This document shows, piece by piece, positions 1 through 19,094 of a stretch of 32,000 nucleotides of DNA; the first letter of the stretch is position 1, and each line of letters starts with the position of its first letter. The stretch is from Nostoc sp. LEGE 12450. GTDB taxonomy: Bacteria > Cyanobacteriota > Cyanobacteriia > Cyanobacteriales > Nostocaceae. Below the pieces are notes generated by a model, which searched no databases, was not told where the DNA came from, and saw only the letters and a list, made by a program, of their open reading frames with translations. The stretch spans positions 1-32,000 of the forward strand of contig NZ_JADEXU010000074.1 of the NCBI RefSeq assembly GCF_015206895.1. Direction: 5' to 3'. The translations under genes were made by a program, and so were the position numbers.

Positions 1-336
1 TTGACTCATCCTGAATCTCCCTAGCAGCAGCCAGAGCCTCGCTTAACAACTCTGGTGGCAATTTATCAGCCAAACTACTTAGGGCTTCGGCGCGACTTGA
101 CTCATCCTGAATCTCCCTAGCAGCAGCCAGAGCCTCGCTTAACAACTCTGGTGGCAATTTATCAGCCAAACTACTTAGGGCTTCGGCGCGACTTGACTCA
201 TCCTGAATCTCCCTAGCAGCAGCTAGTGCCTCGCTGAACAAATCAGGCAATTTATCAGCCAAACGATTTAGGGCTAAGGCGCGATAATACTTATCCTGAA
301 TCTCCCTAGCAGCAGCCAGTGCTTTTGAGAGTCCTA
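1..336. repeat. 96-nt tandem coding repeats (32-aa units) in the sensor domain of NLR-like locus B
   Basis: Positions 1-96 and 97-192 appear identical base for base. 193-288 is a diverged copy, and a fourth degenerate copy follows. The period is a multiple of 3 and in frame with the minus-strand ORF. Confidence 0.9.
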
Positions 337-1957
337 GTTGTTTTAGGTTTGGTGGCAGGTGATTGACTAGCTCTGTAAGCAAGTGTGCTTTATTTTGTGG
401 ATTCGAGCTTTGTAGCACGTAAGCTAGTCCTTGCTCAGGAGTCCAGACACTTTTTTGAACTAACGCAATCAACAGTTCTACTGGTAAATTAGCTGCCAGA
501 CTATTAAGGGATGCAATAATCAAAGCATAGCGACACTGTAAGCCAATAACTTGAGGCAGGGTTGTAAGAGTCCAAGAGCCTTCTGCCAATTGCCAAGCAC
601 GAGCAACATCAGTTACAAAGTTGGCAGTTTGTCCCAAGCGATCGCACGCTTTATACCAACCATTACCTCCTGTTTTTGACTCTTCACGCAATAAGGAGTG
701 AATCTCTTCTACTTGTTCAGCCTTTTCCAAATGCCAGACTAGACGTTGGTGGATATAACCGTCATTAGGGAGGGTATGCCAGAGATTTTTATCGGTTAAT
801 TTTTGGTACTTCTCTAAGAATTTGGTATGAGCTTGAGGCAGAGTTATACCTAATCCTGGTAGATTACCAAAGCGCTTCGGGTTTAGTGGAGCAGTTAACA
901 AATTACATGCAAGGTCATGAAATAAGTCATGTAAACGATAGGTTGGTGTTCCATCTATTAAAGGGACACCAGACAATAACAGTGCTTTAGAGTGCAAGTA
1001 GCCCAACTCATCTGCTGCATCCCGCTCATGATCCATATCCCACAGCATTACAGTCATTTGCTGAGTAATAGTTACATCCTCGGGTAATATTCCCAGCCAG
1101 ATGAAATTTTCTCGCGTAACGGGAGCTAATCGCTGGACACTCAAATTTAATGATGCAGTTAAACTGAGTTTTTTTAAGCTTGCTTCATCCGCCGCATCTC
1201 TAGCTGATTTATTATCTAATGTTTTTAAGCGGGCTACCTCTTGCTGCATATCCTGCACAAGAACTGTCCAAGGAGTACCATCACCAACTTGGGCAGCGGC
1301 TAGTTCCAATGCCAAAGGCAAGTAACCAAGCTCTCTTGCTAAAGCTTCTGCCGACTGAGTTTCTGTGTCAGTGAGGTCACGTCCTAATTTCTTAGTCAGC
1401 AGTTCCATCGCTTGGGATGGCTGCATCACATCCAGAGAATACGAGATGGCTCCGAGAACTTGGGCGATTCCTGCTTCGCGTGTTGTTACCAAAACTTGAC
1501 AACGCGCTCCACCAACATTAAATGCTTGTGCATCCTTTGTATCCCAAGCATCGTCTACTACTACCAGCACAGCTTTGTCATACAGCAGTGTACGCAGTTG
1601 ATTGGAAGCACCTTCTACGCTAGTAGCTTTAAAGTTGTTGTCCCCTAATACCTGTACCCAATCACTAAGCAGGGATAGAAGATGAGGCTGCTGACCTAAT
1701 GTTGCCCAGAGAATCCCATCACAAAAATGAGCTTGCACCTCTTGATCGTGCGCTAAAGCCATTGCGAGGGTTGATTTCCCAACAGAACCCAAGCCGTGAA
1801 TGGCAGTCACAACCAAAGTACGGACATCATTTGACTGTGCAAGCAGCCGAGTTTTTAAGTCTTGGCTATATTCGGGACGGTCAACGTAATAACTTGGCAG
1901 TGGTGGTGCTTGGAAAGGTTTTTTTAACTTTACCCATTCCCCAACGGGCGGCTGTAG
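1..1957 (-). CDS. NB-ARC (STAND) NTPase with C-terminal 32-aa HEAT/ARM-like repeats (NLR-like locus B body). The 3' end runs off the left edge, and the 5' end abuts the in-frame TGA at 1958-1960.
   Basis: I translated the minus strand by hand in the frame of the 1958-1960 stop. It is open for all ~652 codons down to position 2. It is absent from the ORF track because it has no stop in the window and no early start. Motifs: YVDRPEYSQDLKTRLL (pre-P-loop), Walker A GLGSVGKST, Walker B VLVVVDDAWD, VLVTTRE, and GYLPLALE (GLPL-type). The C-terminus is repeats of SRAEALSSLADKLPPELLSEALAAAREIQDES. The first canonical in-frame start after the TGA is TTG 1816 or GTG 1810, only ~8-10 codons before the P-loop. 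Confidence 0.8.
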
Positions 1958-2389
1958 TCAGGTGTTGTTAAATGTAATATTGTGACCACTGCCACCCTGA
2001 ATTACTGGCGCATTGGTGTTGTTAGCATTATTCTGTTGTCCTTCTCCACCATAGACATTCTGAAGATTTTGACCTTGAATCTGACCAATATTTATTTCTT
2101 GCTGAATCTCATGAGCCAGTTTCTGTATCTCTTGGGCAAAATTCGGGTCAGATTTCATCACTGGCTGTAAGTAAGCAGCAAGTTTTTCTAAATCTGGCTT
2201 AGACCCTTTTTCTGCTGAAGCAAACGCTGCTTCAGCCTCTTGGTTTCCATGAATCTTGTTCCAAATCTTGTCACGCAGCACTTTTATTTTGGCAAGAGTT
2301 GCTTCTGTGAATTTCTCAATTGTTTTCTCAAAAGCTTTAGTGAAAGCAAGAGTTGCGATTACACCAGCAGTAAGCGGTTCCATGTACAA
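1958..2389 (-). CDS. Small helical protein (143 aa) with an N-terminal hydrophobic helix (MYMEPLTAGVIATLAFTKAF) and a G/N/Q-rich tail. Candidate HeLo/Bell-like or effector-associated N-terminal module of NLR-like locus B (terminated form).
   Basis: ORF track. It is a paralog of 11300-11773, sharing the MEPLTAG start, a DP(N/E) helix and a GGE/GSG-NI tail. It ends at a TGA that is in frame with the downstream NB-ARC ORF. Confidence 0.75.
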   Translation of the reverse strand: MYMEPLTAGVIATLAFTKAFEKTIEKFTEATLAKIKVLRDKIWNKIHGNQEAEAAFASAEKGSKPDLEKLAAYLQPVMKSDPNFAQEIQKLAHEIQQEINIGQIQGQNLQNVYGGEGQQNNANNTNAPVIQGGSGHNITFNNT

Positions 2390-5446: not shown

Positions 5447-8236
5447 CTAGAGAGACATCCCTTTACCCTGTCTTCTTTCTTGTCGAAGAGCCTCTTCTCT
5501 TATTTCTTGCAATACACGCTCTGCTTTTTGCCAAAGCTGAATATCTTCTCTTTCTACTGACCCAATAGAAATCGGGGAATACTCAAGCTCACCTGACTGG
5601 TTTCGGTTGACTGCCACTCGAAAAATCTCACCTCGTTCATCATGGGTAAAGACCAGTTCTCTCCCCTGTTTCTCCAGAGTGGCACGTTTGAATCTAAGGC
5701 TATTTGAGCCAGTTTCTCTTAATTGCCAGTTGATTAATTCAACAGCAATAGGCACAGCCATCGCTAAGAATTCCGATTCTTTATGCTGCTTTTCATCGAG
5801 TGACTGTTCTGGTTCTGACTTTTGAGTTGCCAGTTGATTGCTAGCGATAAGTACTAATTCTCTGGCTTCATCTTGTGTCCATCCGGCTGGACTGGCAAAG
5901 ATAATTTCTTCAACATCTTGGGGTGACTTATTATCTAATAGCGCCCGTATAGCAATTTCTTTATCTCGGTCAGTCACTAATAAGTTTTGCAAGTCTGCGC
6001 TGTAATACTGATATAACTCGGCTGAAAGATTATCTTTTAACTTTGGTTCATCTGTGGTTATAGTTGGAGTTTGATTAAGAGCAATTGCGTCTACTGTTGT
6101 TTGCGATCTATGCAGTTGCTCCAAATAAACAATCGCTGCTTCCAGGTCGTCGAATATGGTTCTTCCGGCTGATAGCTGCTGCTGATTTTGAGAAAGTTGT
6201 TGTGTTAATTCTAATACTGTTTGGGTTAAAGCAGACTCGATAGCTGATTGCTCAATATAATCAAAGATTGATGAAATAGCTTTGTTTTCTGCGTGAGATT
6301 GCAACTCAGCCGTAACTGCTTCATCAAAGTCACTGAATGTAGTTTTAGCTGCAACTAGTTGTTGATGATATTGAGAAACTTGCTCTGTTAACCCTAATAC
6401 TGCTTGGCTTAAAGCTGACTCGATAGCTGATTGCTCAATATAATCAAAGATTGATGAAATGGCTTTCTGATCTGCATGGGATTGCAACTCAGCCGTCAAT
6501 GCTTCATCAAAGTCATTGAATGTAGTTTTATCTTTAACTAGTTGCTCTTTGTATTGAGACAGTTGCTCTGTTAATCCTAATACTGTTTCAGTTAAAGCTG
6601 ACTCGATAGTTGATTGCTCAATATAATCAAAGATTGATAAAATAGCTCTCTTCTCTGCATGAGATTGTAACTCAGCCGTCAATGCTGTTTCAAAGTCATT
6701 GAATGTAGTTTTCGCTTCAAGTAGCTGCTGATGATATTGAGAAACTTGCTGTGTTAATCCTAATACTGCTTGGCTTAAAGCTGACTCGATAGCTGATTGC
6801 TCAATATAATCAAAGATTGATAAAATGGCTTTCTGATCTGCATGGGATTGCAACTCAGCCGTAAATGCTTCATCAAAGTCATTGAATGTAGTTTTATCTT
6901 TAACTAGTTGCTGCCGATATTGAGATAGTTGCTCTGTTAATCTTAATACTGTTTCAGTTAAAGCTGACTCGATAGCTGATTGCTCAATATAATCAGAGAT
7001 TGACAAAATTGCTTTCTTCTCTGCGTGGGATTGCAACTCAGCCGTAAATGCTTCATCAAAGTCATTGAATGCAGTTTTAGCTCGAAAGAGTTGTTGCCGA
7101 TAAATAGATAGTTGTTCTGTTAATTGTGGCAACGTTTCAGCCAAGGCATCATCAACTACTGACTGTTCAATAAAGTCAGAGATTGCATCCACTGCTCTTT
7201 GTGATGATAGTCGTTGCTCTTTATTAACAATCGCGGCTCCCAGGTCGTCAAATGCGGTTTTTTCTGCTTCTTGCTGCTGCTGATACGCGGACAGTTGTTC
7301 TGTTAATTGTGGTAAAGTTTCAACCAAGGCATCATCAACTACTGACTGTTCGATAAAGTCAGCGATTATATTTATAAATCTTTGGCTCTCCACTGCTTGC
7401 TCTTTAGGATTCTTCAACAGATTCTCAATAAGCTCATCATCCCGTTGGGGCTGGTAGTCAATCCCCTTATGTTTTTGTAAACCTGGGAATGTGTAGGCAG
7501 GCCCCAAAGATGTGCCGCTAAATTTCTGGTCATTCCAAGAGTACGAAATGCCCTTACTTTTACCGTTGCGTGTTAAGCCATGACGAACTTCTACACCTTG
7601 TAGTTGCAACCGCTCAACCAGTTGGGGCATAGTTAGTTTATCTATTGTGGCGCGGTCGATTAGTTCCTGGAGTTGTTGCTTAATAGGGCGTTCTTGTGGT
7701 GTAAGGCGCTCACCATTGATATATTCAGAGTGTTCTCTTTCTAGCCGTTTTTGTTGTCCAATACTGGGATTACGCGATAATTTCTCATGACTGCTCTGGG
7801 TTTGTTGTAAACCATAATCTCGTTCTAGCTGCCGAATAATGGTTTCGCTACGCTTGTAATCCCAGCTATCATGTACAATCTTCCCGTTATCTAACCGAAT
7901 GCGGCTGGCGCAGATATGGATATGGTCATGCTCTGTGTTGCTATGTCTGTAAACAACGTACTGGTTACTGTCAAAGCCCATCTCTTCGAGATAGCGGTTA
8001 GCAAGTTCGTTCCAGGTTGGTTCGTCTAGTCGCTCGTTGTCTGGTAGTGATAATGATGCGTGATACACTACACGGTCAGCTTCTGGGTTTAGTTGTCGGG
8101 AAATTTTGAATTCTCTGGCCAGGGCACGGGCGTTATTGCCGCCCATATTGCCACCAATGAGTTTGGCATCTTTCTGAGACTCCAAATAATTCAGCAGTCC
8201 GCGAAACCCTCGCCCTTTAGTCTGGTTGCCAATCAT
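5447..8236 (-). CDS. Mobilisation relaxase (MobA/VirD2-type N-terminal domain) with a long internal 61-aa tandem-repeat region
   Basis: The N-terminus reads GRGFRGLLNYLE..., then VVYHASLSLP, then the histidine triad HSNTEHDHIHICASRI (HxDxxxHxH type). It overlaps the upstream MobC-like gene by 20 nt. Confidence 0.9.
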   Translation of the reverse strand: MIGNQTKGRGFRGLLNYLESQKDAKLIGGNMGGNNARALAREFKISRQLNPEADRVVYHASLSLPDNERLDEPTWNELANRYLEEMGFDSNQYVVYRHSNTEHDHIHICASRIRLDNGKIVHDSWDYKRSETIIRQLERDYGLQQTQSSHEKLSRNPSIGQQKRLEREHSEYINGERLTPQERPIKQQLQELIDRATIDKLTMPQLVERLQLQGVEVRHGLTRNGKSKGISYSWNDQKFSGTSLGPAYTFPGLQKHKGIDYQPQRDDELIENLLKNPKEQAVESQRFINIIADFIEQSVVDDALVETLPQLTEQLSAYQQQQEAEKTAFDDLGAAIVNKEQRLSSQRAVDAISDFIEQSVVDDALAETLPQLTEQLSIYRQQLFRAKTAFNDFDEAFTAELQSHAEKKAILSISDYIEQSAIESALTETVLRLTEQLSQYRQQLVKDKTTFNDFDEAFTAELQSHADQKAILSIFDYIEQSAIESALSQAVLGLTQQVSQYHQQLLEAKTTFNDFETALTAELQSHAEKRAILSIFDYIEQSTIESALTETVLGLTEQLSQYKEQLVKDKTTFNDFDEALTAELQSHADQKAISSIFDYIEQSAIESALSQAVLGLTEQVSQYHQQLVAAKTTFSDFDEAVTAELQSHAENKAISSIFDYIEQSAIESALTQTVLELTQQLSQNQQQLSAGRTIFDDLEAAIVYLEQLHRSQTTVDAIALNQTPTITTDEPKLKDNLSAELYQYYSADLQNLLVTDRDKEIAIRALLDNKSPQDVEEIIFASPAGWTQDEARELVLIASNQLATQKSEPEQSLDEKQHKESEFLAMAVPIAVELINWQLRETGSNSLRFKRATLEKQGRELVFTHDERGEIFRVAVNRNQSGELEYSPISIGSVEREDIQLWQKAERVLQEIREEALRQERRQGKGMSL
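6104..7385. repeat. Seven 183-nt (61-aa) tandem repeats inside the relaxase gene
   Basis: The anchor gattgctcaatataatc recurs at 6246, 6429, 6612, 6795 and 6978, with diverged copies at 7161 and 7344. The period is exactly 183. The protein units resemble AILSIFDYIEQSAIESALTETVLGLTEQLSQYRQQLVKDKTTFNDFDEAFTAELQSHADQK, with two alternating subtypes. Confidence 0.9.
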
Positions 8237-8729
8237 CTGTTTCCTCGTCCGATTCTTCGATGAAGGTATTGGCTATTTCCCGTTGGCAGTGTCGTAGCAG
8301 TTCTAGTAACTCTTGTAGAAGTTCTGGTGATGCTGGCGGTGGCAACTGCATTTTAATGGCGGTATTGGTGGCTTTGGCCAGTTGGTTGATGTTGTTGCCG
8401 ATGCGCGACAGTTCCAGGTATGTGTCTAGTGTAACTCTGCCCAGTCGCGGCGGTGGTGGTGGGATTGGTCGCAGTAACATACATCGTCTTGTCAATTCTC
8501 CCAAGCTCAAGCCCGTATCTTCTGCTTTAGAGCGAATCATCTCATATTCAATCGGGCTGAATCGCGCTTGCAACATTTTGGTGCGGACGAGTGACTGAGA
8601 AGAAGCTTTGGGCATAAGTAAAACTTGAGTTGATGCAGTTTTTGAGGGGGTTTCCAAAGTGGGGATACTTCCCCCTTTGGCAAGCCTGCCGAGTCGAGCT
8701 TTAGCGAGACAGCACGCAGTGCTAGGCAT
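8217..8729 (-). CDS. mobC: MobC-family relaxosome accessory protein. The true start is possibly ATG 8615 or 8576 rather than 8729.
   Basis: The sequence RFSPIEYEMIRSKAEDTGLSLGELTRRCML...YLELSRIGNNINQLAKATN matches the MobC pattern (RHH-like N-terminus plus GNNLNQ). It is translationally overlapped with the relaxase. The 5' 38 codons contain a strong hairpin and may be non-coding. Confidence 0.8.
   Translation of the reverse strand: MPSTACCLAKARLGRLAKGGSIPTLETPSKTASTQVLLMPKASSQSLVRTKMLQARFSPIEYEMIRSKAEDTGLSLGELTRRCMLLRPIPPPPPRLGRVTLDTYLELSRIGNNINQLAKATNTAIKMQLPPPASPELLQELLELLRHCQREIANTFIEESDEETDDWQPD
8654..8680. promoter_or_regulatory. Candidate oriT-type inverted repeat upstream of (or in the 5' extension of) mobC
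   Basis: ccaaagtgggga (8654-8665), tact, tccccctttgg (8670-8680). This gives an 11-bp stem with one bulged T and a 4-nt loop. The location is typical for an oriT IR, but I recognised no nic consensus. Confidence 0.3.
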
Positions 8730-9053
8730 GGCTTGCTCTGAACCAGTTTTTGGGGGAGGCAGAAGGACTAGGGGTACAACCCACTAGGGGACAAAGCGCG
8801 TAATCTCTGGATACCACAACCATGATATTACTAAGGAGTTAATGTAAATTACACTGTGTCAATTATTCGTGATAAGTCTGTGATTTATATTTGATTAACT
8901 GTTCGTGAGTTATCTTACACGCTATGAGTAATCAATGTTCAACCAATTACGTTAATATCTATTGCTGTTTCTTAACCAATTGTTGCATTGATAATTACCT
9001 GTCTTTAGATAGATGCTGCATATTCAAGTAAAGTTTTAAACATAAACATTAGT

Positions 9054-9596
9054 TTGATTTTTACTCTTGTGGCTAAAGACAATATTCCTAAGTCGAAGAT
9101 TCCAGACGCTCTTGATGCTCTACGCGCTTTGGGTGCTAAAGAATTAGATGATATCCCAGCACGAGCAGCTATTAAAAAGATGCGCCGTCAAATTGAGCGG
9201 GTGCTTCGTCTCGGATATAGCTACGAGGAAGTGTCTAAAACTTTAGCCCCTTTGGATATCAACATCAGCCCTGAACGTATCCGTTATTTACTTAACGATA
9301 TTCGTCGGTCTACACGCAAAAAGTCAGTTACTACTCCAAGTCTTGAGAATACTAGTACACCAGTTATTGATGAGCCGGCAGTTAGTGAGGATTCGACTTC
9401 TGAGCAAAGCACTAATCAGTCTGTTCAAAAATCAGAACCAGAATCAAAACCAGAATCAAAACCAGCTTCTTCAAAATCAACAACTACTAAAACTCCTAAA
9501 ACGGCTAAAAAGACCTCTGATGCTAAGGCTCTAGAGAATCAAAATTCCTCTCGCCTTGCTTTTGTGCCTGAAATAATAAACGACGAGGATTTGTAG
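9054..9596 (+). CDS. Hypothetical protein, possibly a DNA-binding partner of the ParA-like ATPase. It has a low-complexity K/S/T/P/E tail.
   Basis: TTG-start ORF immediately followed by the ParA-like gene (TAG then ATG). The segment IPARAAIKKMRRQIERVLRLGYSYEEVSKTLA looks HTH-like. The tail reads KSEPESKPESKPASSKSTTTKTPKTAKK. The start codon is uncertain. Confidence 0.55.
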   Translation: MIFTLVAKDNIPKSKIPDALDALRALGAKELDDIPARAAIKKMRRQIERVLRLGYSYEEVSKTLAPLDINISPERIRYLLNDIRRSTRKKSVTTPSLENTSTPVIDEPAVSEDSTSEQSTNQSVQKSEPESKPESKPASSKSTTTKTPKTAKKTSDAKALENQNSSRLAFVPEIINDEDL

Positions 9597-10376
9597 ATGG
9601 TAGTCAAACCTAAACAATCGGATGACCAAGTTCAGGAACAAAAGGCAACTGAACAGCCAAAAAATCTTGGGCGCTTGGTGTTGGTGACTGGTGATAAGGG
9701 CGGGACTGGTAAAAGTGTCATGGCTAGAATCCTACTCGACATTTACCGCCACAGAAATATTAACTGCATCGCTTACGAGTGTGACCAGTCTAATCCTCAG
9801 CTTTATCGTCATTACAACAAAGTCGCTCCTGGCGTGCAAACGCTCAAACTAAATCAGCGCGGTGGTGCTGATGCTTTGCAGGATGATTTAAAACGTTTAT
9901 CTCCTCAAGTTTCCCTTGTGGATCTGCCTGCTGGGGCTGCTGAGTATTTTGAGTCAGTCGCTAAGGATATTTTTCTGTTTCAAAATGCCCAGCGTTTGGG
10001 TTATCGCATCACTATGGTGTCGGTGCTGGGTCGGGTTAAAGATAGTCTGTTGCAGTTAAAACGGCTGGTGGATTTCTGCGGCGACAAAGTTGATTATGTA
10101 GTTGTGAAAAATCTTTACTGGGGTGATGAACACAAGTTTACTCGCTACAACAATTCTAAGATGAAGCAGGCTGTAGAAGCATTGGGGGCAATTGAACTGT
10201 TATTGCCTGAGTTGTATGACGATATTTTTGACCTCGTTGACTCCAAGGATCTAACATTCAGGGAGGCGTTAGAGCATGAGGATTTTAGTTTGAGTAATCA
10301 ATCGAGAGTTTATGGCTGGATTGATGCGGTTGAGACTGAGTTTTCTAAGGCGGCTGTACAGTTGGGGTTAGAGTAA
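9597..10376 (+). CDS. parA: ParA/MinD/VirC1-family deviant Walker-A ATPase
   Basis: LVLVTGDKGGTGKSVMA matches the KGGxGKS deviant Walker A. The size (259 aa) and plasmid context fit. Confidence 0.85.
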   Translation: MVVKPKQSDDQVQEQKATEQPKNLGRLVLVTGDKGGTGKSVMARILLDIYRHRNINCIAYECDQSNPQLYRHYNKVAPGVQTLKLNQRGGADALQDDLKRLSPQVSLVDLPAGAAEYFESVAKDIFLFQNAQRLGYRITMVSVLGRVKDSLLQLKRLVDFCGDKVDYVVVKNLYWGDEHKFTRYNNSKMKQAVEALGAIELLLPELYDDIFDLVDSKDLTFREALEHEDFSLSNQSRVYGWIDAVETEFSKAAVQLGLE

Positions 10377-11110
10377 TGGCTGTAAGTAATGGTAATGGCA
10401 ATGGTACGGTATCTCATTTAGATAGGTTGCTGTCAGAAAAGCCACCGGAATTTCAAGCGAAAGTGTTGCGGTTTGCTTTAGATTCTGGAATGAAACAAGA
10501 TGACCCAGCATTTCGACTGGTGCAGTACATTGGATATTTGGCGCAACTAACAGAAACTGCTCCGAATGATTGGAAGTTATTATTTGAAAATTTACAAGAT
10601 GAGTTAAACCAATGGAGTCAACTGACGGCGGAGCAATTGAAGGTTCAAGCCGACCACACGGAGAACATCAAAAATCTGGCGACCAGCTGCAATCAGCTAG
10701 GGACAGCCTTGAGCGCATTAAATCTAACATCTCAGCAACAACTCAAGCAATTGACGAGCTTAACCAAACTCTCCGAGAATTTGAACAATATCTCCCCCAG
10801 GCAACCAGAGACATTGAGCAAACCGTTGCAAGAACAATTGAACGAGATTCAGACGGGAATATCTCTATTGAACCAAAAAGACGTGGAATCAGTCGTTAAA
10901 GGTTGGACTAGAGCTATTAGAATCTGGCTTGTCTCTCCGATCTCATTTTTTATTCTGTTTTGGTTTTATTCACACATGACCCCAATCCCTACTCCTATTG
11001 AAACTACTGAGTCTCTACAGAAGATTTTGCAGAATACTGATTGGAGTAATGCCAAGCTTCAACGGGTTGAGAAAAAGTTGGGGACAGATCCAAACCGAAG
11101 ACGACGATAA
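10376..11110 (+). CDS. Hypothetical coiled-coil protein with a C-terminal transmembrane segment
   Basis: Its ATG overlaps the parA stop (TAATG). It has a Q/L-rich coiled-coil region and a hydrophobic stretch, IWLVSPISFFILFWFY. Confidence 0.7.
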   Translation: MAVSNGNGNGTVSHLDRLLSEKPPEFQAKVLRFALDSGMKQDDPAFRLVQYIGYLAQLTETAPNDWKLLFENLQDELNQWSQLTAEQLKVQADHTENIKNLATSCNQLGTALSALNLTSQQQLKQLTSLTKLSENLNNISPRQPETLSKPLQEQLNEIQTGISLLNQKDVESVVKGWTRAIRIWLVSPISFFILFWFYSHMTPIPTPIETTESLQKILQNTDWSNAKLQRVEKKLGTDPNRRRR

Positions 11111-11299: not shown

Positions 11300-11773
11300 A
11301 TGGAGCCATTAACTGCTGGTACGTTGATGCTTGCTTTCGTAGGAAGTAAACTCATTGATTGGTCAATTGGCAAAGCTTTTGATGCAGCTTATGACACAGC
11401 CAAGCAAGTTCTGGCAAAGAAATCTCCTGAAACGGCAGAGGCTTTAGCAGCCGCAGCAGAACAAGCTTCATTACCCGCCGCAGAGCGAAAAAATATTGGT
11501 GTTGCTGTTTTGGTAGATAAAGTAGAAAAAGTAGCGCAGGCAGATCCGGAGATTAAAGATGCAGTGGAAGCGTTAGGAAATCAAGCCTACGCCTCTGCAC
11601 AAGATAATCCTGCTCTGGCAAAGGCTATTCAAGAGTTAACACAAACCATTAAAGCTCAAAAACCACCCAGCCAGAACCCAGCCAAAATAGCGGAAACAAT
11701 CGGAATTAACGAACAGAATATTTCAGGTGGTGAGGTTGTTCAGCATTTTGGTTCAGGTAATATCCAAATTTGA
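11300..11773 (+). CDS. Small helical protein (157 aa) with an N-terminal hydrophobic helix (MEPLTAGTLMLAFVGSKLI) and a G/N/Q-rich tail. Candidate HeLo/Bell-like N-terminal module of NLR-like locus A (terminated form).
   Basis: ORF track. GAGGTAG lies 4 nt upstream of the ATG. It is a paralog of 1958-2389. It ends at TGA 11771-11773, in frame with the NB-ARC-TPR ORF. Confidence 0.75.
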   Translation: MEPLTAGTLMLAFVGSKLIDWSIGKAFDAAYDTAKQVLAKKSPETAEALAAAAEQASLPAAERKNIGVAVLVDKVEKVAQADPEIKDAVEALGNQAYASAQDNPALAKAIQELTQTIKAQKPPSQNPAKIAETIGINEQNISGGEVVQHFGSGNIQI

Positions 11774-14023
11774 CTACAGTCGCCCGAACGGGAACGGGTA
11801 AAGTTAAATCCCCCACAAAATATTCCTCCTAGTAGCACAGATAAATTTGTCGGACGAGAAAGAGAATTAGAACGCCTCCAACAACAGTTACAATCCAATC
11901 ATGCGGTGGTAATTGCTGCTGTGGAAGGGATGGGGGGAGTTGGTAAAACCGAATTAGCAATCCAATATTCACTACTAAATTTGCAGTTGCACAGCTACCC
12001 TGGCGGTATCTGCTGGTTAAGAGCTAGAGAGTCAGATATTGGGTTACAAATATTACAATTTGCTACAATAGACTTGGGTAAAAAGCCGCCAGAAGATTTG
12101 GAGTTACTAGAACGAGTACGTTGGTGCTGGCAACATTGGCGGCAGGGGAATACGCTAATAGTCCTTGATGATGTTAATAGTTACAGTCACATTGAACCGT
12201 ATCTACCACCCCAACCATCTCAATTTCAGGTACTAATTACTACACGCCTAAAGCTAGATTTACTTAGTTCTCTGTTTTTGAAAGTTTTATCAGAAACAGA
12301 CGCACTCTTGTTACTAGCTCAATCAATTGGAGAAGCAAAGCAAAACCAAGAATTAGCACAAGCCCAAGAAATTTGTCAGCGTTTAGGCTATTTGCCCTTA
12401 GCTTTGCAATTAGTCGGTAGGTATGTAAAGAGACACAAGATATCATTAGCTGAAATACTGCGACGCTTAGAGGAAAAAGGATTAGCTCATCCTTCGTTAG
12501 TTGTGAAAGAAAATGACCCCACTTGGAATTCAAATGTCAAACTTGGAGTAGCGGCGGCTTTTGAATTAAGTTGGGAACAATTAAGTAATGATGCTCAACA
12601 GTTAGGTTGTTTAGTAAGCTTATTTGCTTTAGCTCCGATTCCTTGGTCGTTGGTGAAACGTGCCGCTCCAGAGGAAGACCAAGAAGAATTAGAAGATGCC
12701 AGAGTTGAATTAGAAAATTTGCATTTGCTACAAGGTGAAAAAACTTATGAATTACATCAGCTAATTCGTGAATTTCTGAGAGACAAGCAAAAAAACTTAG
12801 CTACTGCGTCAGAGCAAAAGTCTCATTTCTGCCAAACAATGGTAGAAGTGGCAAAGGAAATTCCCTCTTCACCTACTCAAAAATTCATTAGTTCAGTCAA
12901 AGATGATATGCCACATTTAGCAGAGGTGGGACAAAATTTGATTGATGCAGTCACTGATGAAAACTTAATTTGGGTTTTTTATGGCTTAGATAGATTTTAC
13001 TCTGGACAGGGTTTATATACTCTAGCAGAACCTTGGGATGAGCTATGTGTATCAGTAGTAAAACATCGCTTGGGAGAAGAACATCCCAATGTCGCTACCA
13101 GTTACAACAACCTGGCTTTACTCTACTATTCCCAAGGGCGGTACAGCAAAGCCGAACCACTGTATCTAAAAGCTTTGGAACTCAGGCAACGGCTGTTGGG
13201 AGAAGAACATCCCGATGTCGCCACCAGTTACAACAACCTGGCTGTACTCTACCATTCCCAAAGACAGTACAGCAAAGCCGAACCACTGTATCTAAAAGCT
13301 TTGGAACTTTGGCAACGGCTGTTGGGAGAAGAACATCCCGATGTCGCTATTAGTTACAACAACCTGGGTGGGCTTTACCATTCCCAAAGACAATACAGCA
13401 AAGCCGAACCACTGTATCTAAAAGCTTTGGAACTTTGGCAACGGCTGCTGGGAGAAGAACATCCCGATGTCGCCACTAGTTACCACAACCTGGCTTTACT
13501 CTACTATTCCCAAGGACAGTACAGCAAAGCCGAACCACTGTATCTAAAAGCTTTGGAACTCAGGCAACGACTGCTGGGAGAAGAAAATCGCAATGTCGCT
13601 ACCAGTTACAACAACCTGGCTTTACTCTACTATTCCCAAGGACAGTACAACAAAGCCAAACCATTGTATCTAAAAGCTTTATTACTCAGGCAGCGGCTGC
13701 TGGGAGAAGAACATCCTGATATCGCTACCAGTTACCACAACCTGGCTTTACTCTACTATTCCCAAGGACAGTACAACAAAGCCAAACCATTGTATCTAAA
13801 AGCTTTATTACTCAGGCAGCGGCTGCTGGGAGAAGAACATCCTGATGTCGCCACCAGTTACCACAACCTGGCTTTACTCTACTATTCCCAAGGACAGTAC
13901 AGCGAAGCCGAACCACTGTATCTAAAAGCTTTGAAAATTGCTGAACTTAGCTTAGGGGTAAATCATCCCAGCACAGCCACTATCCGTAAAAATCGGAAAT
14001 ACTTGTGCAATAATTGCCTTTAA
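11774..14023 (+). CDS. NB-ARC (STAND) NTPase with a TPR sensor (NLR-like locus A body). The ORF track starts it at GTG 11906, but the conserved domain begins right after the TGA.
   Basis: Codons 11774-11905 are open, in frame and have no ATG/GTG/TTG. They encode LQSPERERVKLNPPQNIPPSSTDKFVGRERELERLQQQLQSNHA. Downstream motifs are GMGGVGKTELA (P-loop), LIVLDDV (Walker B), VLITTR and GYLPLALQ (GLPL). Seven 42-aa TPR units follow. Confidence 0.85.
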   Translation, partial: LQSPERERVKLNPPQNIPPSSTDKFVGRERELERLQQQLQSNHAVVIAAVEGMGGVGKTELAIQYSLLNLQLHSYPGGICWLRARESDIGLQILQFATIDLGKKPPEDLELLERVRWCWQHWRQGNTLIVLDDVNSYSHIEPYLPPQPSQFQVLITTRLKLDLLSSLFLKVLSETDALLLLAQSIGEAKQNQELAQAQEICQRLGYLPLALQLVGRYVKRHKISLAEILRRLEEKGLAHPSLVVKENDPTWNSNVKLGVAAAFELSWEQLSNDAQQLGCLVSLFALAPIPWSLVKRAAPEEDQEELEDARVELENLHLLQGEKTYELHQLIREFLRDKQKNLATASEQKSHFCQTMVEVAKEIPSSPTQKFISSVKDDMPHLAEVGQNLIDAVTDENLIWVFYGLDRFYSGQGLYTLAEPWDELCVSVVKHRLGEEHPNVATSYNNLALLYYSQGRYSKAEPLYLKALELRQRLLGEEHPDVATSYNNLAVLYHSQRQYSKAEPLYLKALELWQRLLGEEHPDVAISYNNLGGLYHSQRQYSKAEPLYLKALELWQRLLGEEHPDVATSYHNLALLYYSQGQYSKAEPLYLKALELRQRLLGEENRNVATSYNNLALLYYSQGQYNKAKPLYLKALLLRQRLLGEEHPDIATSYHNLALLYYSQGQYNKAKPLYLKALLLRQRLLGEEHPDVATSYHNLALLYYSQGQYSEAEPLYLKALKIAELSLGVNHPSTATIRKNRKYLCNNCL
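13070..13951. repeat. Seven 126-nt (42-aa) tandem TPR-coding repeats with very high nucleotide identity
   Basis: The unit start ttgggagaagaacatcc recurs at 13070, 13196, 13322, 13448, 13574, 13700 and 13826. Two consecutive units (about 13604-13860) are nearly identical over more than 110 nt. The protein unit is LGEEHPDVATSYNNLALLYYSQGQYSKAEPLYLKALELRQRL. Confidence 0.9.
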
Positions 14024-14159
14024 AGCTAGTGTAAGAGAGCGATTTTTTGCGGAGAAGATAGGTGACAATTAAGCTGGGATTTTAAGCGTTAATCATCCCA
14101 AAACCTTGAAACTTTGTAGACGCAAGTTTGGTGTAACGAACAGTGTGCTGAATATTGTT

Positions 14160-16355
14160 ATGGCTTCTCGTAGTAATCCACTTCGTGTCAACTTAGTTTT
14201 TGCAAACCTGATTCGTGGCAATCTAGGTGGTGCCTTTCGGATTCTTAAAAATTTGATTCGTGCCAATCTGATCTATGCCGATCTGCACCAAACCAACCTC
14301 AGCAGTGCTAACCTCAGCAGTGCCAACCTCAGCAGTGCCAACCTCAGCAGTGCCAACCTCAGCAATGCCAACCTCAGCAGTGCTAACCTCAGCAGTGCCA
14401 ACCTCAGTAGTGCCGACCTCAGTAGTGCCGACCTCAGTAGTGCCGACCTCAGTAGTGCCAACCTCAAGAATGCTAACCTCAAGAATGCTAACCTCAAGAA
14501 TGCTAACCTCAGTAGTGCCTATCTCTATGGTGTAATTTTCAACAAAAACACACAGATTGCTGTTAAATGGCGTTTGGTTTGGAAAATTGTTAATCAGGGA
14601 GTCAAAGATGGAGATTTAAGTAATACAGACCTCAGTGGTGTCAACCTCAGTGGTGTCAACCTAAGTGGTGTCAACCTAAGTAGTGCCAACCTCAGCGGTA
14701 CCAACCTCAGTGGTGTCAAGCTTTACCGTGCCAACCTCAATAGTGCCAACCTCAATAGTGCCAACCTCAATAGTGCCAACCTCAGTAGTGCCAACCTCAG
14801 TAGTGCCAACCTCAGCAGTGCCAACCTCAGCAGTGCCAACCTCAGTAGTGCCGACCTCAGTAGTGCCGACCTCAAGAATGCTAACCTCAAGAATGCTAAC
14901 CTCAAGAATGCTAACCTCAAGAATGCTAACCTCAGTAGTGCCTATCTCTATGGTGTAATTTTCAACAAAAATACACAGATTGCTGTTAAATGGCGTTTGG
15001 TTTGGGAAATTGTTAATCAGGAAGTCAAAGATCGAGATTTAAGTAATACAGACCTCAGTGGTGTCAACCTCAGTGGTGTCAACCTCAGTGGTATCAACCT
15101 CAGCGGTACCAACCTCAGCGGTACCAACCTCAGTGGTGTCAACCTTTACCGTGCCAACCTCAATAGTACCAATCTCAGTAGTGCCAACCTCAGCGGTACC
15201 AACCTCAGTAGTGCCAACCTCAGTAGTGCCAATCTCAGCAGTGCCAACCTCAGTATTGTCAACCTTCAGGATACTGATCTTTCAGGTGCTGATCTCCGCG
15301 ATGCTTATCTTTCAGGTACTGACCTCCATCGTGCCAACCTCAGCAGAGCCAACCTCAGCAATGCCAACCTTCGCGATGCCAACCTTCGCGATGCCAACCT
15401 TCGCGATGCCAACCTCAGAACTACTGACCTCGGTAGTGCCTATCTGTATGGTGTAATTTTTAACGAAAAGACACAAATTGGTAGCAAATGGCGTTTGGTT
15501 TGGGAGATTGTTAATCAGGGAGCCAAAGGTCGAGATTTAAGTAATGCCGACCTCAGCAGTTCCAACCTCAGCAGTTCCAACTTCCGCGATGCCAATCTCA
15601 GCAGTGCTAACCTCAACGGTGCTAACCTCCGCAGTGCCGACCTTCGCGGTGCCGACCTCCGCGGTGCCGACCTCCGCGGTGCTAAACTTTACGGTGTAAT
15701 TTTTAACGAAAAGACGCAAATTGGTAGCAAATGGCATTTGGTTTGGGAGATTGTTAATCAGGGAGCCAAAGGTCAAGATTTAAGTAATGTCGACCTCAGC
15801 GGTGCAGACCTCAGCGGTGCAGACCTCAGCGGTGCAGACCTCAGCGGTGCTAACCTCAGCGGTGCTAATCTCAGCGGTGCTAATCTCGGCGGTACTAATC
15901 TTAGTGATGCCGACCTCCGCAGTGCTAACCTCAGCGGTGCCTATCTTTACAGTGCTAACCTCAGCGGTGCCGACCTCAGAGGTGCCTATCTCTATGGTGT
16001 AATTTTTAACGAAAAGACGCAAATTGGTAGCAAATGGCATTTGGTTTGGGAGATTGTTAATCAGGGAGCCGAAGGTCGAGATTTAAGTAATGTCGACCTC
16101 AGCGGTGCAGACCTCAGCGGTGCTAACCTCAGCGGTGCAGACCTCAGCGGTGCAGACCTCAGCGGTGCTAACCTCAACGGTGCCAACCTCAACGGTGCCA
16201 ACCTCAAGAATGCTAACCTCAATGGTGCTTATATTTACAGTGCCAACCTCAACGGTGCCAACCTCAACGGTGCCAACCTCAAGAATGCTAATCTTGAAAA
16301 CACCTTATTTGATAGCAGTATAGGACTTAGAGATCGCATGAAGCATAACTTTTGA
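14160..16355 (+). CDS. Multi-module pentapeptide-repeat protein (six A(D/N)LSx blocks separated by five conserved linkers). The ORF is open from TTG 14106.
   Basis: Long runs of [15 protein letters not shown] pentapeptides. The linker AYLYGVIFN(K/E)xTQIxxKW(R/H)[17 protein letters not shown] recurs at about 14519, 14941, 15440, 15686 and 15983. ATG 14160 gives MASRSNPL... Confidence 0.85.
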
Positions 16356-16537: not shown

Positions 16538-17926
16538 TTAATCCCAGTCAGTTTGTGCTGACTGCGGTCGCACCATGTTCTTAAATTTTGTTAAGTGTGC
16601 ATCAAACAGTAGTTGGATTGTGCATGTGGCCCCATCGCGGTTTTTAGCAAGGATAATCTCTGCAATTCCTTTCTCTTGCGTATTAGTATCGTAATATTCG
16701 TCACGATACAACATAATTACTTTGTCCGCGTCCTGCTCAATCCCGCCACTGTCACGTAAATCCGAGAGCATGGGGCGTTTGTTATTACGGTTTTCTACCG
16801 CTCTTGATAGTTGCGATAAACACATAACAGGGGTCTGTAACTTCATCGCTAAACGCTTGAGTCCGCGTGTGAGCTTTTCTATCTCATTGTTTCTGTTGCC
16901 CCCGCCGTTACCATCCATCAGTTGCAGATAATCCACAACGATTAACCCCAAATCACGGCGCTCTTGTGCCATGATTTTACGGCATTCAGATTCTATATAG
17001 CTCAGTGATGGGTCTGGGCGGTCATCAAGGTAAACAGGTAGCTCTGATAGTGTGCCGATGCCCTGTGATAGTGGTTCCCATTGTTTGTTAGAGATGCGCC
17101 CAGTTTTCAAATAGCCGCTTTCTATGCCTGCCTCACCTGAAAGCGCACGCATGGCAATCTGTAGCTTTGACATTTCCAGACTGAACACGACAACCGGAAA
17201 CTGATAAGCTTGGGCTAGATGAAAAGCTATCTGAGCCGCAAACGCTGATTTCCCCATCGCCGGACGACCCGCAACGATAACTAAATCATTGCGGTTAAAC
17301 CCGCAAGTCATTGCATCAAGATCATAAAAGCCCGTGGGAATCCCAGGTAATACTTTACCTTGGCTGCGGTCTTCAATATCCTGAAACAGATTAATCACCA
17401 CTTCGGAAATGTGGCTGGCCCCCGCAGTGTCAGATGATCGCTGCAACTCATAGATAAAGTCCTGTAATTGTGAGAAGGCTTCCTCTAAGGGCGTTTCTTC
17501 ATTGGATTTGTGCTGCAATTCGATTGCAAGGTTTCCCAGTCTACCTAGTTCCCGGCGCTTCCATTTTTCCACAACTAGACCTGCCAGCGCATCAATGTTA
17601 ACTGCTGATACTGTTCTGTCAACCAGCGATGCTAACTTGTTTCGACCGCCGATAATTTCTAACAAACTATTATCAGCTAAATAATTCGTGATCATCAACA
17701 AGTCTGTGGGCAATTCTTGAGCATTAAGTCGAAGGGCTGCGTTGTAGATCCGACCATGAGCGCTGATATAGAAGTGATGCGGCTTCAAAATGTCGCGGAC
17801 ACGTTCTATGGCTGCTGGGTCAAGCAAGATGCCCCCAAGTATCGCCTCTTCAGATTCAATGCTCTGTGGTGGTAGCTTATTGGCTGTGGTGGCAAAAGGA
17901 ATTACGTTGTCGTCACTGGCGTACAT
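16538..17926 (-). CDS. dnaB: Replicative DNA helicase DnaB
   Basis: The N-terminus has PPQSIESEEAILGGILLDP. Walker A is GRPAMGKSAFA. Also present are LIVVDYLQLM, CLSQLSRAVE and RDSGGIEQDADKV, all canonical DnaB motifs. Confidence 0.95.
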   Translation of the reverse strand: MYASDDNVIPFATTANKLPPQSIESEEAILGGILLDPAAIERVRDILKPHHFYISAHGRIYNAALRLNAQELPTDLLMITNYLADNSLLEIIGGRNKLASLVDRTVSAVNIDALAGLVVEKWKRRELGRLGNLAIELQHKSNEETPLEEAFSQLQDFIYELQRSSDTAGASHISEVVINLFQDIEDRSQGKVLPGIPTGFYDLDAMTCGFNRNDLVIVAGRPAMGKSAFAAQIAFHLAQAYQFPVVVFSLEMSKLQIAMRALSGEAGIESGYLKTGRISNKQWEPLSQGIGTLSELPVYLDDRPDPSLSYIESECRKIMAQERRDLGLIVVDYLQLMDGNGGGNRNNEIEKLTRGLKRLAMKLQTPVMCLSQLSRAVENRNNKRPMLSDLRDSGGIEQDADKVIMLYRDEYYDTNTQEKGIAEIILAKNRDGATCTIQLLFDAHLTKFKNMVRPQSAQTDWD

Positions 17927-17999
17927 ATTAATCTCTGATTTCGATTAGGTCTAAATTTTTACAGTCAGATACCCAAAACCCTGAAGAGAAGGGGCTTGG

Positions 18000-19094
18000 T
18001 CAATTAGGAATATCTACAAATCTTTCAGGAAACTTGGCGCTTGCCCATTCGTACCATTTGGCAGATACTTTATGCTTGCAAAACTTAGATAGTCCCTCTG
18101 ACTGGAGCATACTGTAGTAGTGATCGTGCATCCGCGCCTCCCATCTGGGAAAATCATACTTCTTGCGCTGTTTCTCTACTTCTACGGGGTCATTAGCAAA
18201 GTTGTTAATTTTGCGCTCTAATATCCTACAACCCACTTTCCATTGCTCAAATAAGCAAAATATCTCTGTACTACCTTCATCTTTTTTAGAAAGCACTGTA
18301 GTCACGTATGGGGCAACGTTGTTAATGTCTTTGCCCTGCGATCGCTGATAGGTCTGATAGTAAAGCAGAAAATCCACTTCTTTAACTGGGTCATCACTGA
18401 AAACCAAGATTTGAGAATGATTCTCACGCGCCGCGCCGGAATTTAGATCCTCATGAGTGGATTTCTCGTTAGTTGCAGAGACTTTCTCAAAGTTAACAGC
18501 GTAGTGATTATCTGGAAGTGCTTTTTCTTGGTCAATTTCTTTGTTCCTCTTTTCCTCTTTTTTTTTCCCTCCATCGCTCTTAGAGGGATTGACTTTATTA
18601 GAGGTATTTAAGAGGGAATTACTTTCTAGCTCTGTCAGACCTACCCCCCTAGCTCTGTCAGACCTACCCCCTAGCTCTGTCAGACCTACCCCCCCGTTCT
18701 GAGAGACCTGGGTAAGGGTAGGTCTGTGTGAGCTATCCGTACAAAACTCTTTAATAATCGGTATAGGGTTTGACCAATTGCGTCTAGGCGCAACACGATA
18801 AATGCAAGTTGTACCGGGGCGAGACTCTTTGATAATCAAGCCATGTGTCGTTAAAGTCTTTAGCGATCGCTTGACCTGCGCTTCCGACATCCGACAACCT
18901 GCCGCCATGTTCTTATTGCTTTCAAAGGCTTCTCCCTTACCAGCACGTCTTACGATTCGGCTATATATACGAAATGAATATGGATCAAGCCCAAAATCGT
19001 CTAATTCTTTGTGGACAAAAATAAAATTAAAATCATCTCTGTCGTCATGTGCTACATAGCCATGCGCTTGTTCTACATTTCGAGAGTTCATCAT
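18000..19094 (-). CDS. Putative plasmid replication initiator (N-terminal winged-helix DNA-binding domain), directly upstream of dnaB
   Basis: The wHTH-like segment is YSFRIYSRIVRRAGKGEAFESNKNMAAGCRMSEAQVKRSLKTLTTHGLIIKE. Iteron-like repeats sit inside the gene, and it is co-oriented with dnaB at a 73-nt gap. The function is inferred from context. Confidence 0.7.
   Translation of the reverse strand: MMNSRNVEQAHGYVAHDDRDDFNFIFVHKELDDFGLDPYSFRIYSRIVRRAGKGEAFESNKNMAAGCRMSEAQVKRSLKTLTTHGLIIKESRPGTTCIYRVAPRRNWSNPIPIIKEFCTDSSHRPTLTQVSQNGGVGLTELGGRSDRARGVGLTELESNSLLNTSNKVNPSKSDGGKKKEEKRNKEIDQEKALPDNHYAVNFEKVSATNEKSTHEDLNSGAARENHSQILVFSDDPVKEVDFLLYYQTYQRSQGKDINNVAPYVTTVLSKKDEGSTEIFCLFEQWKVGCRILERKINNFANDPVEVEKQRKKYDFPRWEARMHDHYYSMLQSEGLSKFCKHKVSAKWYEWASAKFPERFVDIPN
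18627..18726. repeat. Iteron-like repeats: three direct 22-nt copies plus one partial inverted copy
   Basis: tagctctgtcagacctaccccc occurs at 18627, 18650 and 18672 (spacing 23 and 22 nt). gggtaggtctg at 18716-18726 is the reverse complement of the core cagacctaccc. Because the period is not a multiple of 3, the copies translate in different frames (GVGLTEL / GGRSDRA / RGVGLTELES). Confidence 0.75.

Follow-up and report, generated by a model that had tools for sequence, protein, structure and literature searches.

In the bacterial amyloid signalling pairs described by Dyrka et al. (2020, 10.1101/2020.01.06.895854), a short effector with a C-terminal tail rich in N, Q and G adjoins the gene for a NOD-like receptor (NLR) of the NB-ARC/NACHT–TPR type. 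The effector may be a Bell domain, a helical domain of about 100 residues with a conserved hydrophobic helix at its N-terminus and a ‘MEPIS’ region, for which an N-terminal MEP signature has been reported, or one of the alternative effectors of these pairs, an alpha/beta-hydrolase or a CHAT protein (10.1101/2020.01.06.895854). In such Bell/BASS pairs, as in Bab/Agp (10.1101/2024.11.07.622273) and HET-S/NWD2, the NLR is a separate protein with its own start codon and its own N-terminal motif. A system of another kind is the gag-pol gene of murine leukaemia virus (MuLV), in which an in-frame stop codon between an abundant short product and a rare fusion is followed by a conserved spacer of 8 nucleotides (nt) and an H-type pseudoknot (references cited in PMC7026636; PMC5009743). 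Here we describe two loci in a stretch of 32,000 nt from Nostoc sp. LEGE 12450 (NCBI RefSeq assembly GCF_015206895.1, contig NZ_JADEXU010000074.1, positions 1 to 32,000 of the forward strand; hereafter the window) that bear a likeness to both. In each locus, a conserved block of 38 nt opens with the UGA that closes a short effector open reading frame (ORF), and the same frame continues beyond it into an NLR. The loci share with Bell/BASS pairs the effector repertoire (Bell-like with MEP, alpha/beta-hydrolase, CHAT), the N/Q/G-rich tail, the adjoining receptor and the taxa in which they occur, and homologous Bell genes are found in both architectures. They fail one defining feature of the two-gene pairs, however, because their NLR has neither a motif nor a start codon of its own.

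The best explanation, in our view, is that the mRNA carries a signal for programmed readthrough, of which the block forms the 5′ part, and that the block is also an evolutionary breakpoint at which modules are swapped. Specifically, pseudoknot-stimulated readthrough of the UGA would produce, from a single message, an abundant effector–motif protein and a rare effector–motif–NLR fusion; we give this reading a probability of roughly 0.7. Five observations carry it: the stop codon is conserved, the frame and its coding constraint are continuous across the stop, no start codon is conserved downstream, the RNA pseudoknot covaries, and the block does not occur together with a start codon and motif that are the NLR's own.

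The stop codon, the reading frame and the RNA pseudoknot

The two loci lie on opposite strands of the window. In locus A (+ strand), an effector ORF of 157 amino acids (aa) at 11300..11770 ends at an in-frame UGA (11771..11773), the proposed recoding site, with TGA or TAG at the homologous positions elsewhere. An NLR body of 749 codons, with NB-ARC and TPR domains, follows in frame 0 with the UGA at 11774..14023. In locus B (− strand), the effector ORF (141 aa, ATG at 2383) occupies 1961..2383 and the in-frame UGA 1958..1960; the NLR body (NB-ARC, an APAF1_C helical domain and C-terminal repeats) spans 1..1957 in frame 0 and continues past the start of the window. The block was first noticed in a sequence-only reading, whose description is borne out when the sequences are read again. 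The blocks at 11771–11808 (+) and 1923–1960 (−) are identical at 33 of 38 nt, with the five mismatches at positions 10, 17, 18, 19 and 25 (here and below, the T of TGA is position 1). Each begins at the stop codon, with a TGA that closes an ORF of 140–157 aa; the encoded peptide, LQSPERERVKLNPP, is conserved; and the coding sequence upstream is, as the reading had it, more diverged. Since the upstream proteins are only 21% identical and the downstream proteins only 22%, the block is an island of nucleotide conservation. A degenerate 38-mer made from both blocks has only these two matches in the window, where none is expected (100 shuffles). The conserved element is in fact 4 nt longer than the 38-mer in locus A, reaching 11812; that of locus B runs to 1915 and has a longer loop 3. 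Neither locus has an ATG, GTG or TTG between the TGA and the beta-strand that precedes the P-loop; the first in-frame start-type codon of locus A is a GTG at 11906, within that strand, inside ...VVIAAVEGMGGVGKT. There is no sense-strand promoter-like or terminator-like site between the two ORFs of either locus.

How widespread is this arrangement? A pattern scan of one genome per species (185,579 species), with the preceding codon left free, shows that the block recurs in cyanobacteria, with an in-frame stop codon before it and, mostly, an NB-ARC domain after it. The pattern matched at least 118 genome stretches, where about 4 chance matches would be expected from an estimate based on its information content. 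Every named organism among the matches listed is a cyanobacterium; these comprise many genera of Nostocales as well as Moorena, Symploca, Coleofasciculus, Kastovskya, Xenococcus and Acaryochloris. At 121 unique sites among the matches listed, the codon directly 5′ of the matched sequence is TGA in 116 cases, TAG in 4 and TAA in none, and the one site with a sense codon is an obvious chance match. In a BLAST search of plasmids, the junction also turns up in Nostoc, Calothrix and Acaryochloris, pCC7120gamma (NC_003267.1) among them; RefSeq and GenBank annotate a small “hypothetical protein” there, with an NB-ARC/TPR protein shortened at its N-terminus behind it. A viral origin of the block was considered and rejected, with no match in 2.9 million viral contigs.

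The immediate surroundings of the stop codon are constrained as well. The C at +4 is invariant in samples that are independent of the search pattern, and a C at this place makes bacterial termination at UGA weak (PMC5289835). The stop is followed by CUA in about 70% of loci, and two spacer positions left free in the pattern are conserved (position 8 is A in 116/120 and position 9 is G in 105/120). At −1 (window positions 11770 and 1961), 119 of 122 loci have a pyrimidine (T 67, C 52, A 3, G 0), and all 21 last codons from four-fold degenerate boxes (TCT, ACT/ACC, CCT, GTY, GGT) end in a pyrimidine; this may reflect a recoding context, or merely an amino-acid preference of the tail. The four TAG sites are all in Moorena (L026, L055, L062 and L103), where CTG and the U13:A28 form of the first stem follow, and three of these four loci have longer upstream effectors, of 200–271 aa. 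Plasmid pMB04 of Acaryochloris sp. ‘Moss Beach’ carries two copies of the element 3 kb apart, at 494 and 3502 of L006, one after an alpha/beta-hydrolase gene and one after a Bell-like gene, with a TPR/NB-ARC ORF behind each. The first of these copies was missed by the strict pattern and was recovered only by a covariance model together with a hidden Markov model (HMM).

Translation beyond the stop would proceed without a change of frame. At each of the 123 sites with a stop before the block, frame 0 stays open beyond it, mostly for hundreds of codons and for 1356 at the most. The stop lies at eight different codon distances from the FVGR motif and at 18 from the P-loop, always in frame 0, so the insertions and deletions in between have all been multiples of three. 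Between nt +45 and +104, the third positions of frame 0 take up the largest share of pairwise differences (5132/4625/10447 by codon position), a pattern that matches that of the upstream ORF (1276/1303/3108). No start codon before NB-ARC is conserved: the first in-frame ATG, GTG or TTG lies anywhere from +5 to +103 codons across the loci, and TTG or GTG codons before FVGR are swapped for TTA, ATT, GTA and GCC. A Shine–Dalgarno sequence and start hidden within the block was rejected as an explanation, since the block holds no in-frame start-type codon.

Covariation points to an H-type pseudoknot that begins 8 nt past the stop. In an alignment of 110 distinct sites it comprises stem 1 (S1; positions 12–16 with 25–29), loop 1 (L1; 17–19), stem 2 (S2; 20–23 with 39–42), loop 2 (L2; 24) and loop 3 (L3; 30–38). 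In locus A (+ strand), the 8-nt spacer CUACAGUC at 11774..11781 includes the +4 C and the conserved CUR codon. The pseudoknot follows at 11782..11812, as identified by covariation: S1 pairs 11782–11786 (GCCCG) with 11795–11799 (CGGGU), S2 pairs 11790–11793 (GGGA) with 11809–11812 (UCCC), and the loops are L1 at 11787–11789, L2 at 11794 and L3 at 11800–11808 (AAAGUUAAA). Locus B (− strand) has the spacer CUACAGCC at 1957–1950 and a variant pseudoknot, and the two together (1915..1957) match the covariance model with 43 bits (E=9e-7). Its S1 can be read directly from the sequence, 1949–1945 (GCCCG) with 1936–1932 (UGGGU). Its L3 has 13 nt, and the proposed S2, 1942–1939 (GGGG) with 1918–1915 (CCUU), is drawn from three loci with a long L3.

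Covariation across homologues is strong. In the alignment, 98.9% of cells are paired, and 38 cells are double-changed, compared with 9.1±2.3 in shuffles (0/500). Sliding the partner columns by 1–3 leaves at most 54% pairing, and RNAalifold predicts S1 unaided. Pair 13:28 is C-G in 79 sites, U-A in 26, U-G in 4 and C-A in 1 (Fisher p=6e-20), and the change alters the peptide, with P to S occurring together with V to T. Pair 20:42 is G-C in 84 sites, G-U in 8, A-U in 7 and C-G in 4 (p about 1e-5); G42 goes with C20 in 4/4 cases (p=2e-5) and A20 with U42 in 7/9 (p=6e-6). Position 42, which covaries here with position 20, is a synonymous site, the third base of a Pro codon. Compensatory changes also separate close relatives. 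For example, L057, L090 and L124 have A20:U42 where relatives with 83–97% identical flanks have G:C, and L041 has A21:U41 where L018 has G:C. There are at least four independent compensatory double changes of this sort between close relatives, which means that phylogenetic inheritance cannot explain the covariation. Pair 15:26 is flipped to G-C in L010, a locus found by HMM and not by the pattern. G-U wobbles are frequent (12:29 is G-U in 61/110 sites, 15:26 is U-G in 30/110), and because each would be an A-C mismatch on the complementary strand, the constraint must act on the sense strand as a single strand. Pairwise differences within the block show no concentration at third positions (18986/11275/16670). 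Thus, with amino-acid changes that follow the pairing and a synonymous Pro site that covaries, conservation of the block tracks base pairing rather than the peptide. Two consecutive hairpins were rejected as an alternative fold, with covariation no better than in shuffles and 26 and 16 unpaired cells at two of the pairs. One locus (L128, at 2918) has a 3-nt deletion in L3 (GGGCAUUAAAUCCC) and an A at position 12; its frame is kept and both helices can still form. Rfam 15 has no family that matches window 11600–12000, the only output being two noise hits at E about 5.

Effectors, receptors and the exchange of modules

The upstream ORFs are typically 124–165 aa long and in most loci start with MEP(L/V)T...; a few encode alpha/beta-hydrolase (PGAP1-like) or CHAT proteins. 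In locus A, the effector has a Bell-like helical N-terminus (MEPLTAG) and a disordered, N/Q/G/I-rich C-terminal tail, NEQNISGGEVVQHFGSGNIQI, whose last ~30 residues (11681..11770, + strand) have the composition bias of an amyloid-signalling-like tail. The effector of locus B (− strand) starts with MEPLTAGVIATLAF, and its tail has two pseudo-repeats, QNLQNVYGGEGQQNNANNTNAPVIQGGSGHNITFNNT. Across 109 homologues, the last 30 residues contain 15.7% N, 10.2% G, 10.3% I and 2.0% L, compared with 3.9% N, 4.8% G and 10.0% L in the remainder of the effector, and the tails as a group are strongly biased towards N, G, I and T and away from L and K. This composition agrees with the description of BASS motifs (~25 aa; rich in N, Q, G, V and I; poor in K, P and L), and the tails appear to resemble amyloid signalling motifs. 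The locus A effector is 100% identical to a hypothetical protein of Nostoc sp. LEGE 12450. Its homologues form 43 clusters; all 43 are 132–166 aa long, and none is fused.

The locus A effector matches no Pfam family; Pfam has no Bell domain model. In an AlphaFold2 (AF2) model, the protein has six helices over residues 3–120, and its tail (121–157) has a predicted local distance difference test (pLDDT) score below 50. When the effector profile was compared with PDB sequences, only non-significant matches were returned. The best was release factor 2 (RF2; E=0.28–0.55, profile positions 71–155). RF2 is the factor that reads UGA, and the match is very probably noise from a helical, Q-rich sequence. 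No defence-system model in PADLOC is matched by the effectors or the NLRs.

The downstream frame-0 ORFs encode NB-ARC in 95 of 102 cases and NACHT in 3, with single examples of CHASE2, protein kinase, FGE-sulfatase and TPR. The NLR of locus A matches NB-ARC with E=8.9e-16 and TPR_10/TPR_12 with E about 1e-107, and that of locus B matches NB-ARC with E=1.4e-22 and APAF1_C with E=4.6e-6. The C-terminal part of the latter (window 1–330, − strand) consists of near-identical repeats of ~34 aa, ...AAAREIQDESSRAEALSSLADKLPPELLSEAL..., that are seen as repeats in the DNA.

Effector and receptor modules are exchanged at the block. Pairwise identity contrasts between loci were used as the measure: 29 pairs are at least 75% identical upstream and less than 35% identical downstream, and 61 pairs show the reverse. 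Sequence homology stops just past the block. For example, the effector of a Calothrix NIES-22 locus that has a CHASE2 body downstream is 83% identical to the locus A effector; here (Calothrix brevissima NIES-22 plasmid4, AP018211.1, around 69,277; L001 4497–5800), the stop and block join a Bell-like effector in frame to a CHASE2 sensor. On the other side of the block, the body of window locus B is 81% identical to that of L002, and the tail of L002 is unrelated.

A search that made no use of the block gives an independent view of these architectures. With a Bell domain query (a 13-sequence subfamily), metagenomes yielded 12 loci with a readable stop, 8 of which combine TGA and the block with an ORF that continues in frame behind them. 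Of the remaining four, three (L136, L137 and L139) are two-gene pairs, in which an ATG-started downstream ORF repeats the upstream tail motif at its N-terminus. In one example, a tail ...GWQTKVEGGTAYVGEINFH is followed by an ORF that starts with MADLIEQLSKFIAE..., a start that agrees with homologues such as P0068, in which AFQTLVEKGGIANLGVHLH lies close to the N-terminus. In a database of 5.8 billion proteins, the closest NB-ARC homologues that begin at a Met of their own also have an N-terminal motif of their own, and 0 of the 120 best such homologues has the block peptide. Degenerate linkers that lack a stop codon, in L050 and as the second linker of L091, have lost S1. The block is mutually exclusive with a start codon and motif belonging to the NLR itself. 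Since the two-gene pairs lack the block and the stop-free linkers have lost S1, the stop, the pseudoknot and a startless, motifless NLR go together. In L091 (− strand), the stop and block are followed by a second motif-like stretch and then by the stop-free linker SPKQQLNPPNN, which has no pseudoknot. In L050 (− strand, around 530), ...SESEPKKLNPPQNLPHSGVSKFVGR occurs in an NLR that is conventional and has an N-terminal motif itself. The two loci have the look of intermediates between two-gene and readthrough architectures.

The rest of the window looks like a small mobilisable plasmid with several defence genes. Its backbone (5447–11110, 16538–19094 and 26970–27572) encodes a MobA/VirD2 relaxase, NikA/MobC, a ParA-like ATPase, DUF6753, a DnaB helicase, an HTH protein and a tyrosine recombinase. 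At 27651–30296 (− strand), an 881-aa protein combines an N-terminal Cap4-type dsDNA endonuclease with a STAND/AAA NTPase (PADLOC LmuA, E=6.7e-11); it is the third gene of a defence type on this element and is unrelated to the other two. A TPR protein that ends in an HNH endonuclease domain is encoded at 3494–5161 (− strand), and a 749-aa pentapeptide-repeat protein at 14106–16355 (+ strand), its start 83 nt past the stop of the locus A NLR.

Readthrough and competing explanations

How would one message give two products in a fixed ratio? The message would carry the short effector ORF (Bell-like and membrane-targeting, alpha/beta-hydrolase or CHAT) and, in the same frame, the NB-ARC/NACHT-repeat NLR. 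A ribosome that reaches the UGA would meet it in the weakest bacterial context, namely UGA-C with a conserved CUR codon and a pyrimidine at −1. The pseudoknot, with its 5-bp S1, 4-bp S2 and A-rich 9-nt L3, would at that moment lie 8 nt downstream, at the mRNA entry channel. Most ribosomes would terminate and release free effector–motif protein. A minority would decode the UGA with a near-cognate tRNA, probably tRNA-Trp, unwind the pseudoknot, read LQSPERERVKLNPP and enter the NLR, resulting in a rare effector–motif–NLR fusion and a low sensor-to-effector ratio fixed by one gene. Because the rare receptor would carry the motif of the abundant effector, oligomers of the receptor could template the effector pool. 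By analogy with HET-S/NWD2 and Bab/Agp, ligand-induced NLR oligomers would nucleate the motif fold and convert the free effectors, leading to membrane damage. Readthrough itself, its level and the inserted amino acid are predictions from sequence. The amyloid templating is suggested by the analogy, and a function in cell death and defence is likewise what we would expect of the system rather than what we have observed. The sensor is nevertheless most likely made by readthrough, given a conserved UGA and pseudoknot in frame with an NLR that has no start, in more than 120 cyanobacterial loci. Two other ways of passing the stop were rejected. Stop-hopping does not fit, since the codons before the stop (UUC, UUU, AUU, AAC, GAU and others) are not cognate with a CUR landing codon. 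A dedicated suppressor tRNA finds no candidate, with no tRNA gene in the window and no UCA-anticodon tRNA reported in cyanobacteria.

It is also conceivable, and in our judgement distinctly unlikely, that the level of readthrough is regulated. The UGA and pseudoknot would then sense disturbed termination during infection, and the dose of fusion protein would tip an amyloid switch to cell death. Possible triggers would be phage suppressor tRNAs, stop-codon-recoded phages, and the loss or inhibition of RF2. If true, bacterial cellular genes would here have their first known signal for programmed readthrough that depends on a pseudoknot.

Several points weigh against the readthrough reading. The fusion product is predicted from sequence alone, and we know of no pseudoknot-stimulated readthrough in any bacterial cellular gene. 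The structure is small, and its single-sequence folding energy has a z of about 0 in both loci, no better than shuffles, which leaves covariation to carry the case for the fold. Many positions of the block are fixed by the search pattern, and so the sample is not an unbiased one; the covariation tests use positions that the pattern left free or for which it allowed alternatives, and the unbiased, protein-based sample is small (8 loci). Locus B, L007 and L097, with a 13-nt L3, need a shifted and weaker S2, which is modelled from their sequences. In about a dozen loci the downstream ORF is short, and these loci may be in decay. Lastly, the AF2 model of the effector has a pLDDT of 65 and no significant Foldseek match in the PDB, which leaves the Bell fold unconfirmed.

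One rival is termination–reinitiation (translational coupling): ribosomes that terminate at the UGA would be held by the pseudoknot and start again at the CUR codon or close to it, making the NLR a separate protein without effector or motif. A restart codon abutting the stop would also keep the frame and the coding constraint directly after it, and coupled stop/start pairs are common in prokaryotes (PMC6728339). The codons available argue otherwise, because the codon that follows the stop is CUA in about 70% of loci, and there is no conserved ATG, GTG or TTG anywhere before NB-ARC. CUA is two positions away from AUG and is not a near-cognate initiator codon, which makes it implausible as a start. 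An NLR made by reinitiation would be motifless, whereas homologous NLRs with their own start always carry the motif, and the strict avoidance of UAA is expected for readthrough and not for reinitiation. We therefore consider reinitiation unlikely. Insertion of selenocysteine is extremely improbable. A UGA with a hairpin 8 nt further on has a superficial likeness to a bacterial selenocysteine insertion sequence (SECIS), and it is UGA that stands in 116 of 120 listed loci, with a hairpin from 8 nt past the codon. On the other hand, four Moorena loci have UAG with the same block, and the avoidance of UAA combined with occasional UAG fits near-cognate decoding and argues against selenocysteine. 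The covariation supports a pseudoknot that uses the loop of the hairpin, no Rfam family matches, and an inter-domain linker offers no catalytic rationale for the residue. Furthermore, none of 61 cyanobacteria surveyed has a UCA-anticodon tRNA (PMC6933170); no search was made for SelA or SelB.

The sequence-only reading had offered three explanations of the block: an RNA-level readthrough signal, a conserved protein linker, and a recombination joint that lets N-terminal modules be swapped between NLRs. The first is the best supported, through the conserved stop, the in-frame startless ORF and the covarying H-type pseudoknot 8 nt downstream. Each of the others is right in part. As a joint at the level of DNA, the block would be an island of homology, or a site, for moving effector modules onto NLR bodies, and modules have evidently been reshuffled with the breakpoint at the block: the 29 and 61 contrasting pairs, the 83% identical effector on a CHASE2 body and the end of homology directly after the block all point that way. 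What lacks support is recombination as the primary function. The covarying pairs are specific to the sense strand and include many G-U wobbles, and homologous recombination has no use for a pseudoknot, a fixed 8-nt distance to the stop or an unbroken frame. The shuffling is better read as a consequence of the conserved island than as its purpose, and we regard a primary role as a joint as quite improbable. A linker is true in an incidental sense, since the block is under coding constraint in frame 0, would be translated upon readthrough and encodes the conserved peptide LQSPERERVKLNPP; a degenerate, stop-free relative (…SESEPKKLNPP…) even occurs in a conventional NLR. The claim that the block is conserved for its peptide, or that the loci are repeatedly inactivated NLR pseudogenes whose nucleotide similarity comes from codon choice, is very improbable. 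The P-to-S change with V to T follows the pairing, the synonymous Pro position covaries with position 20, and differences within the block are not biased to third positions. Homologous NLRs with their own start lack the block peptide. Finally, more than 120 loci in several cyanobacterial orders place the stop identically, and the downstream frame mostly stays open for hundreds of codons.

Comparison with known systems

What would follow if readthrough is confirmed? Bacteria would be found to use a dedicated RNA pseudoknot to programme the readthrough of their own genes, and a compact natural signal of 42 nt would become available for study on 70S ribosomes. For retroviruses such readthrough is textbook knowledge, and its mechanism has been called “remarkably unclear” in reviews (PMC7026636). 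There would be a third NLR–effector architecture beside the two-gene amyloid pairs and the all-in-one fusions, in which one gene makes both a receptor and an excess of effector, with the stoichiometry set by recoding. More than 100 cyanobacterial NLR genes are now annotated as N-terminally truncated with arbitrary starts, or as a “hypothetical protein” beside a “tetratricopeptide repeat protein”. The readthrough reading would also explain how modules for effector and sensor come to be exchanged at one fixed joint. Searches of the literature on readthrough together with cyanobacteria, NLRs, amyloid signalling or the block sequence found no description of such a signal, and the two key papers on amyloid signalling mention neither stop codons nor readthrough.

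The closest likeness on the RNA side is to MuLV gag-pol, where the presumed purpose is again a fixed product ratio. MuLV uses UAG on eukaryotic 80S ribosomes with eRF1, whereas the cyanobacterial element would use UGA (rarely UAG) on bacterial ribosomes with RF2. The cyanobacterial pseudoknot is much smaller (31 nt) and has no sequence homology to that of MuLV, and its hosts are cellular or plasmid immune genes rather than a viral polyprotein. Alphaviruses and Colorado tick fever virus, whose signals include a 3′ stem-loop, have a leaky UGA followed by C, as do the cyanobacterial loci (CUA/CUG), but these viral signals are eukaryotic. In phage Qbeta, bacterial ribosomes read through the UGA between coat and A1 at a useful low level, extending the protein (cited in PMC7026636). 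Unlike the cyanobacterial loci, neither Qbeta nor alphavirus-type readthrough involves immune receptors. To our knowledge, Qbeta has no dedicated 3′ pseudoknot. Frameshift pseudoknots of luteoviruses and the preQ1-I riboswitch, the smallest of the H-type, belong to a similar size class and have a similar A-rich loop 3; Rfam returned no preQ1 match at E up to 10. The −1 frameshifting of dnaX and other ratio-setting recoding in bacteria are alike in that an mRNA structure 5–9 nt past the recoding site sets the ratio of two products (PMC7026636), but the block loci have no slippery sequence and no change of frame.

On the protein side, the all-in-one fusions Avast2/Avs2 and bNACHT02/11/23 have a Bell-like N-terminus fused to a STAND NTPase, as would the predicted readthrough product. 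These are single ORFs, however, with no internal stop and no amyloid-type motif, whereas in the block loci the free short form would be the major product. The system appears, from its sequence, to combine two known kinds, pseudoknot-stimulated readthrough and NLR amyloid signalling, much as if a signal of the retroviral type had been placed inside a Bell/BASS–NLR system.

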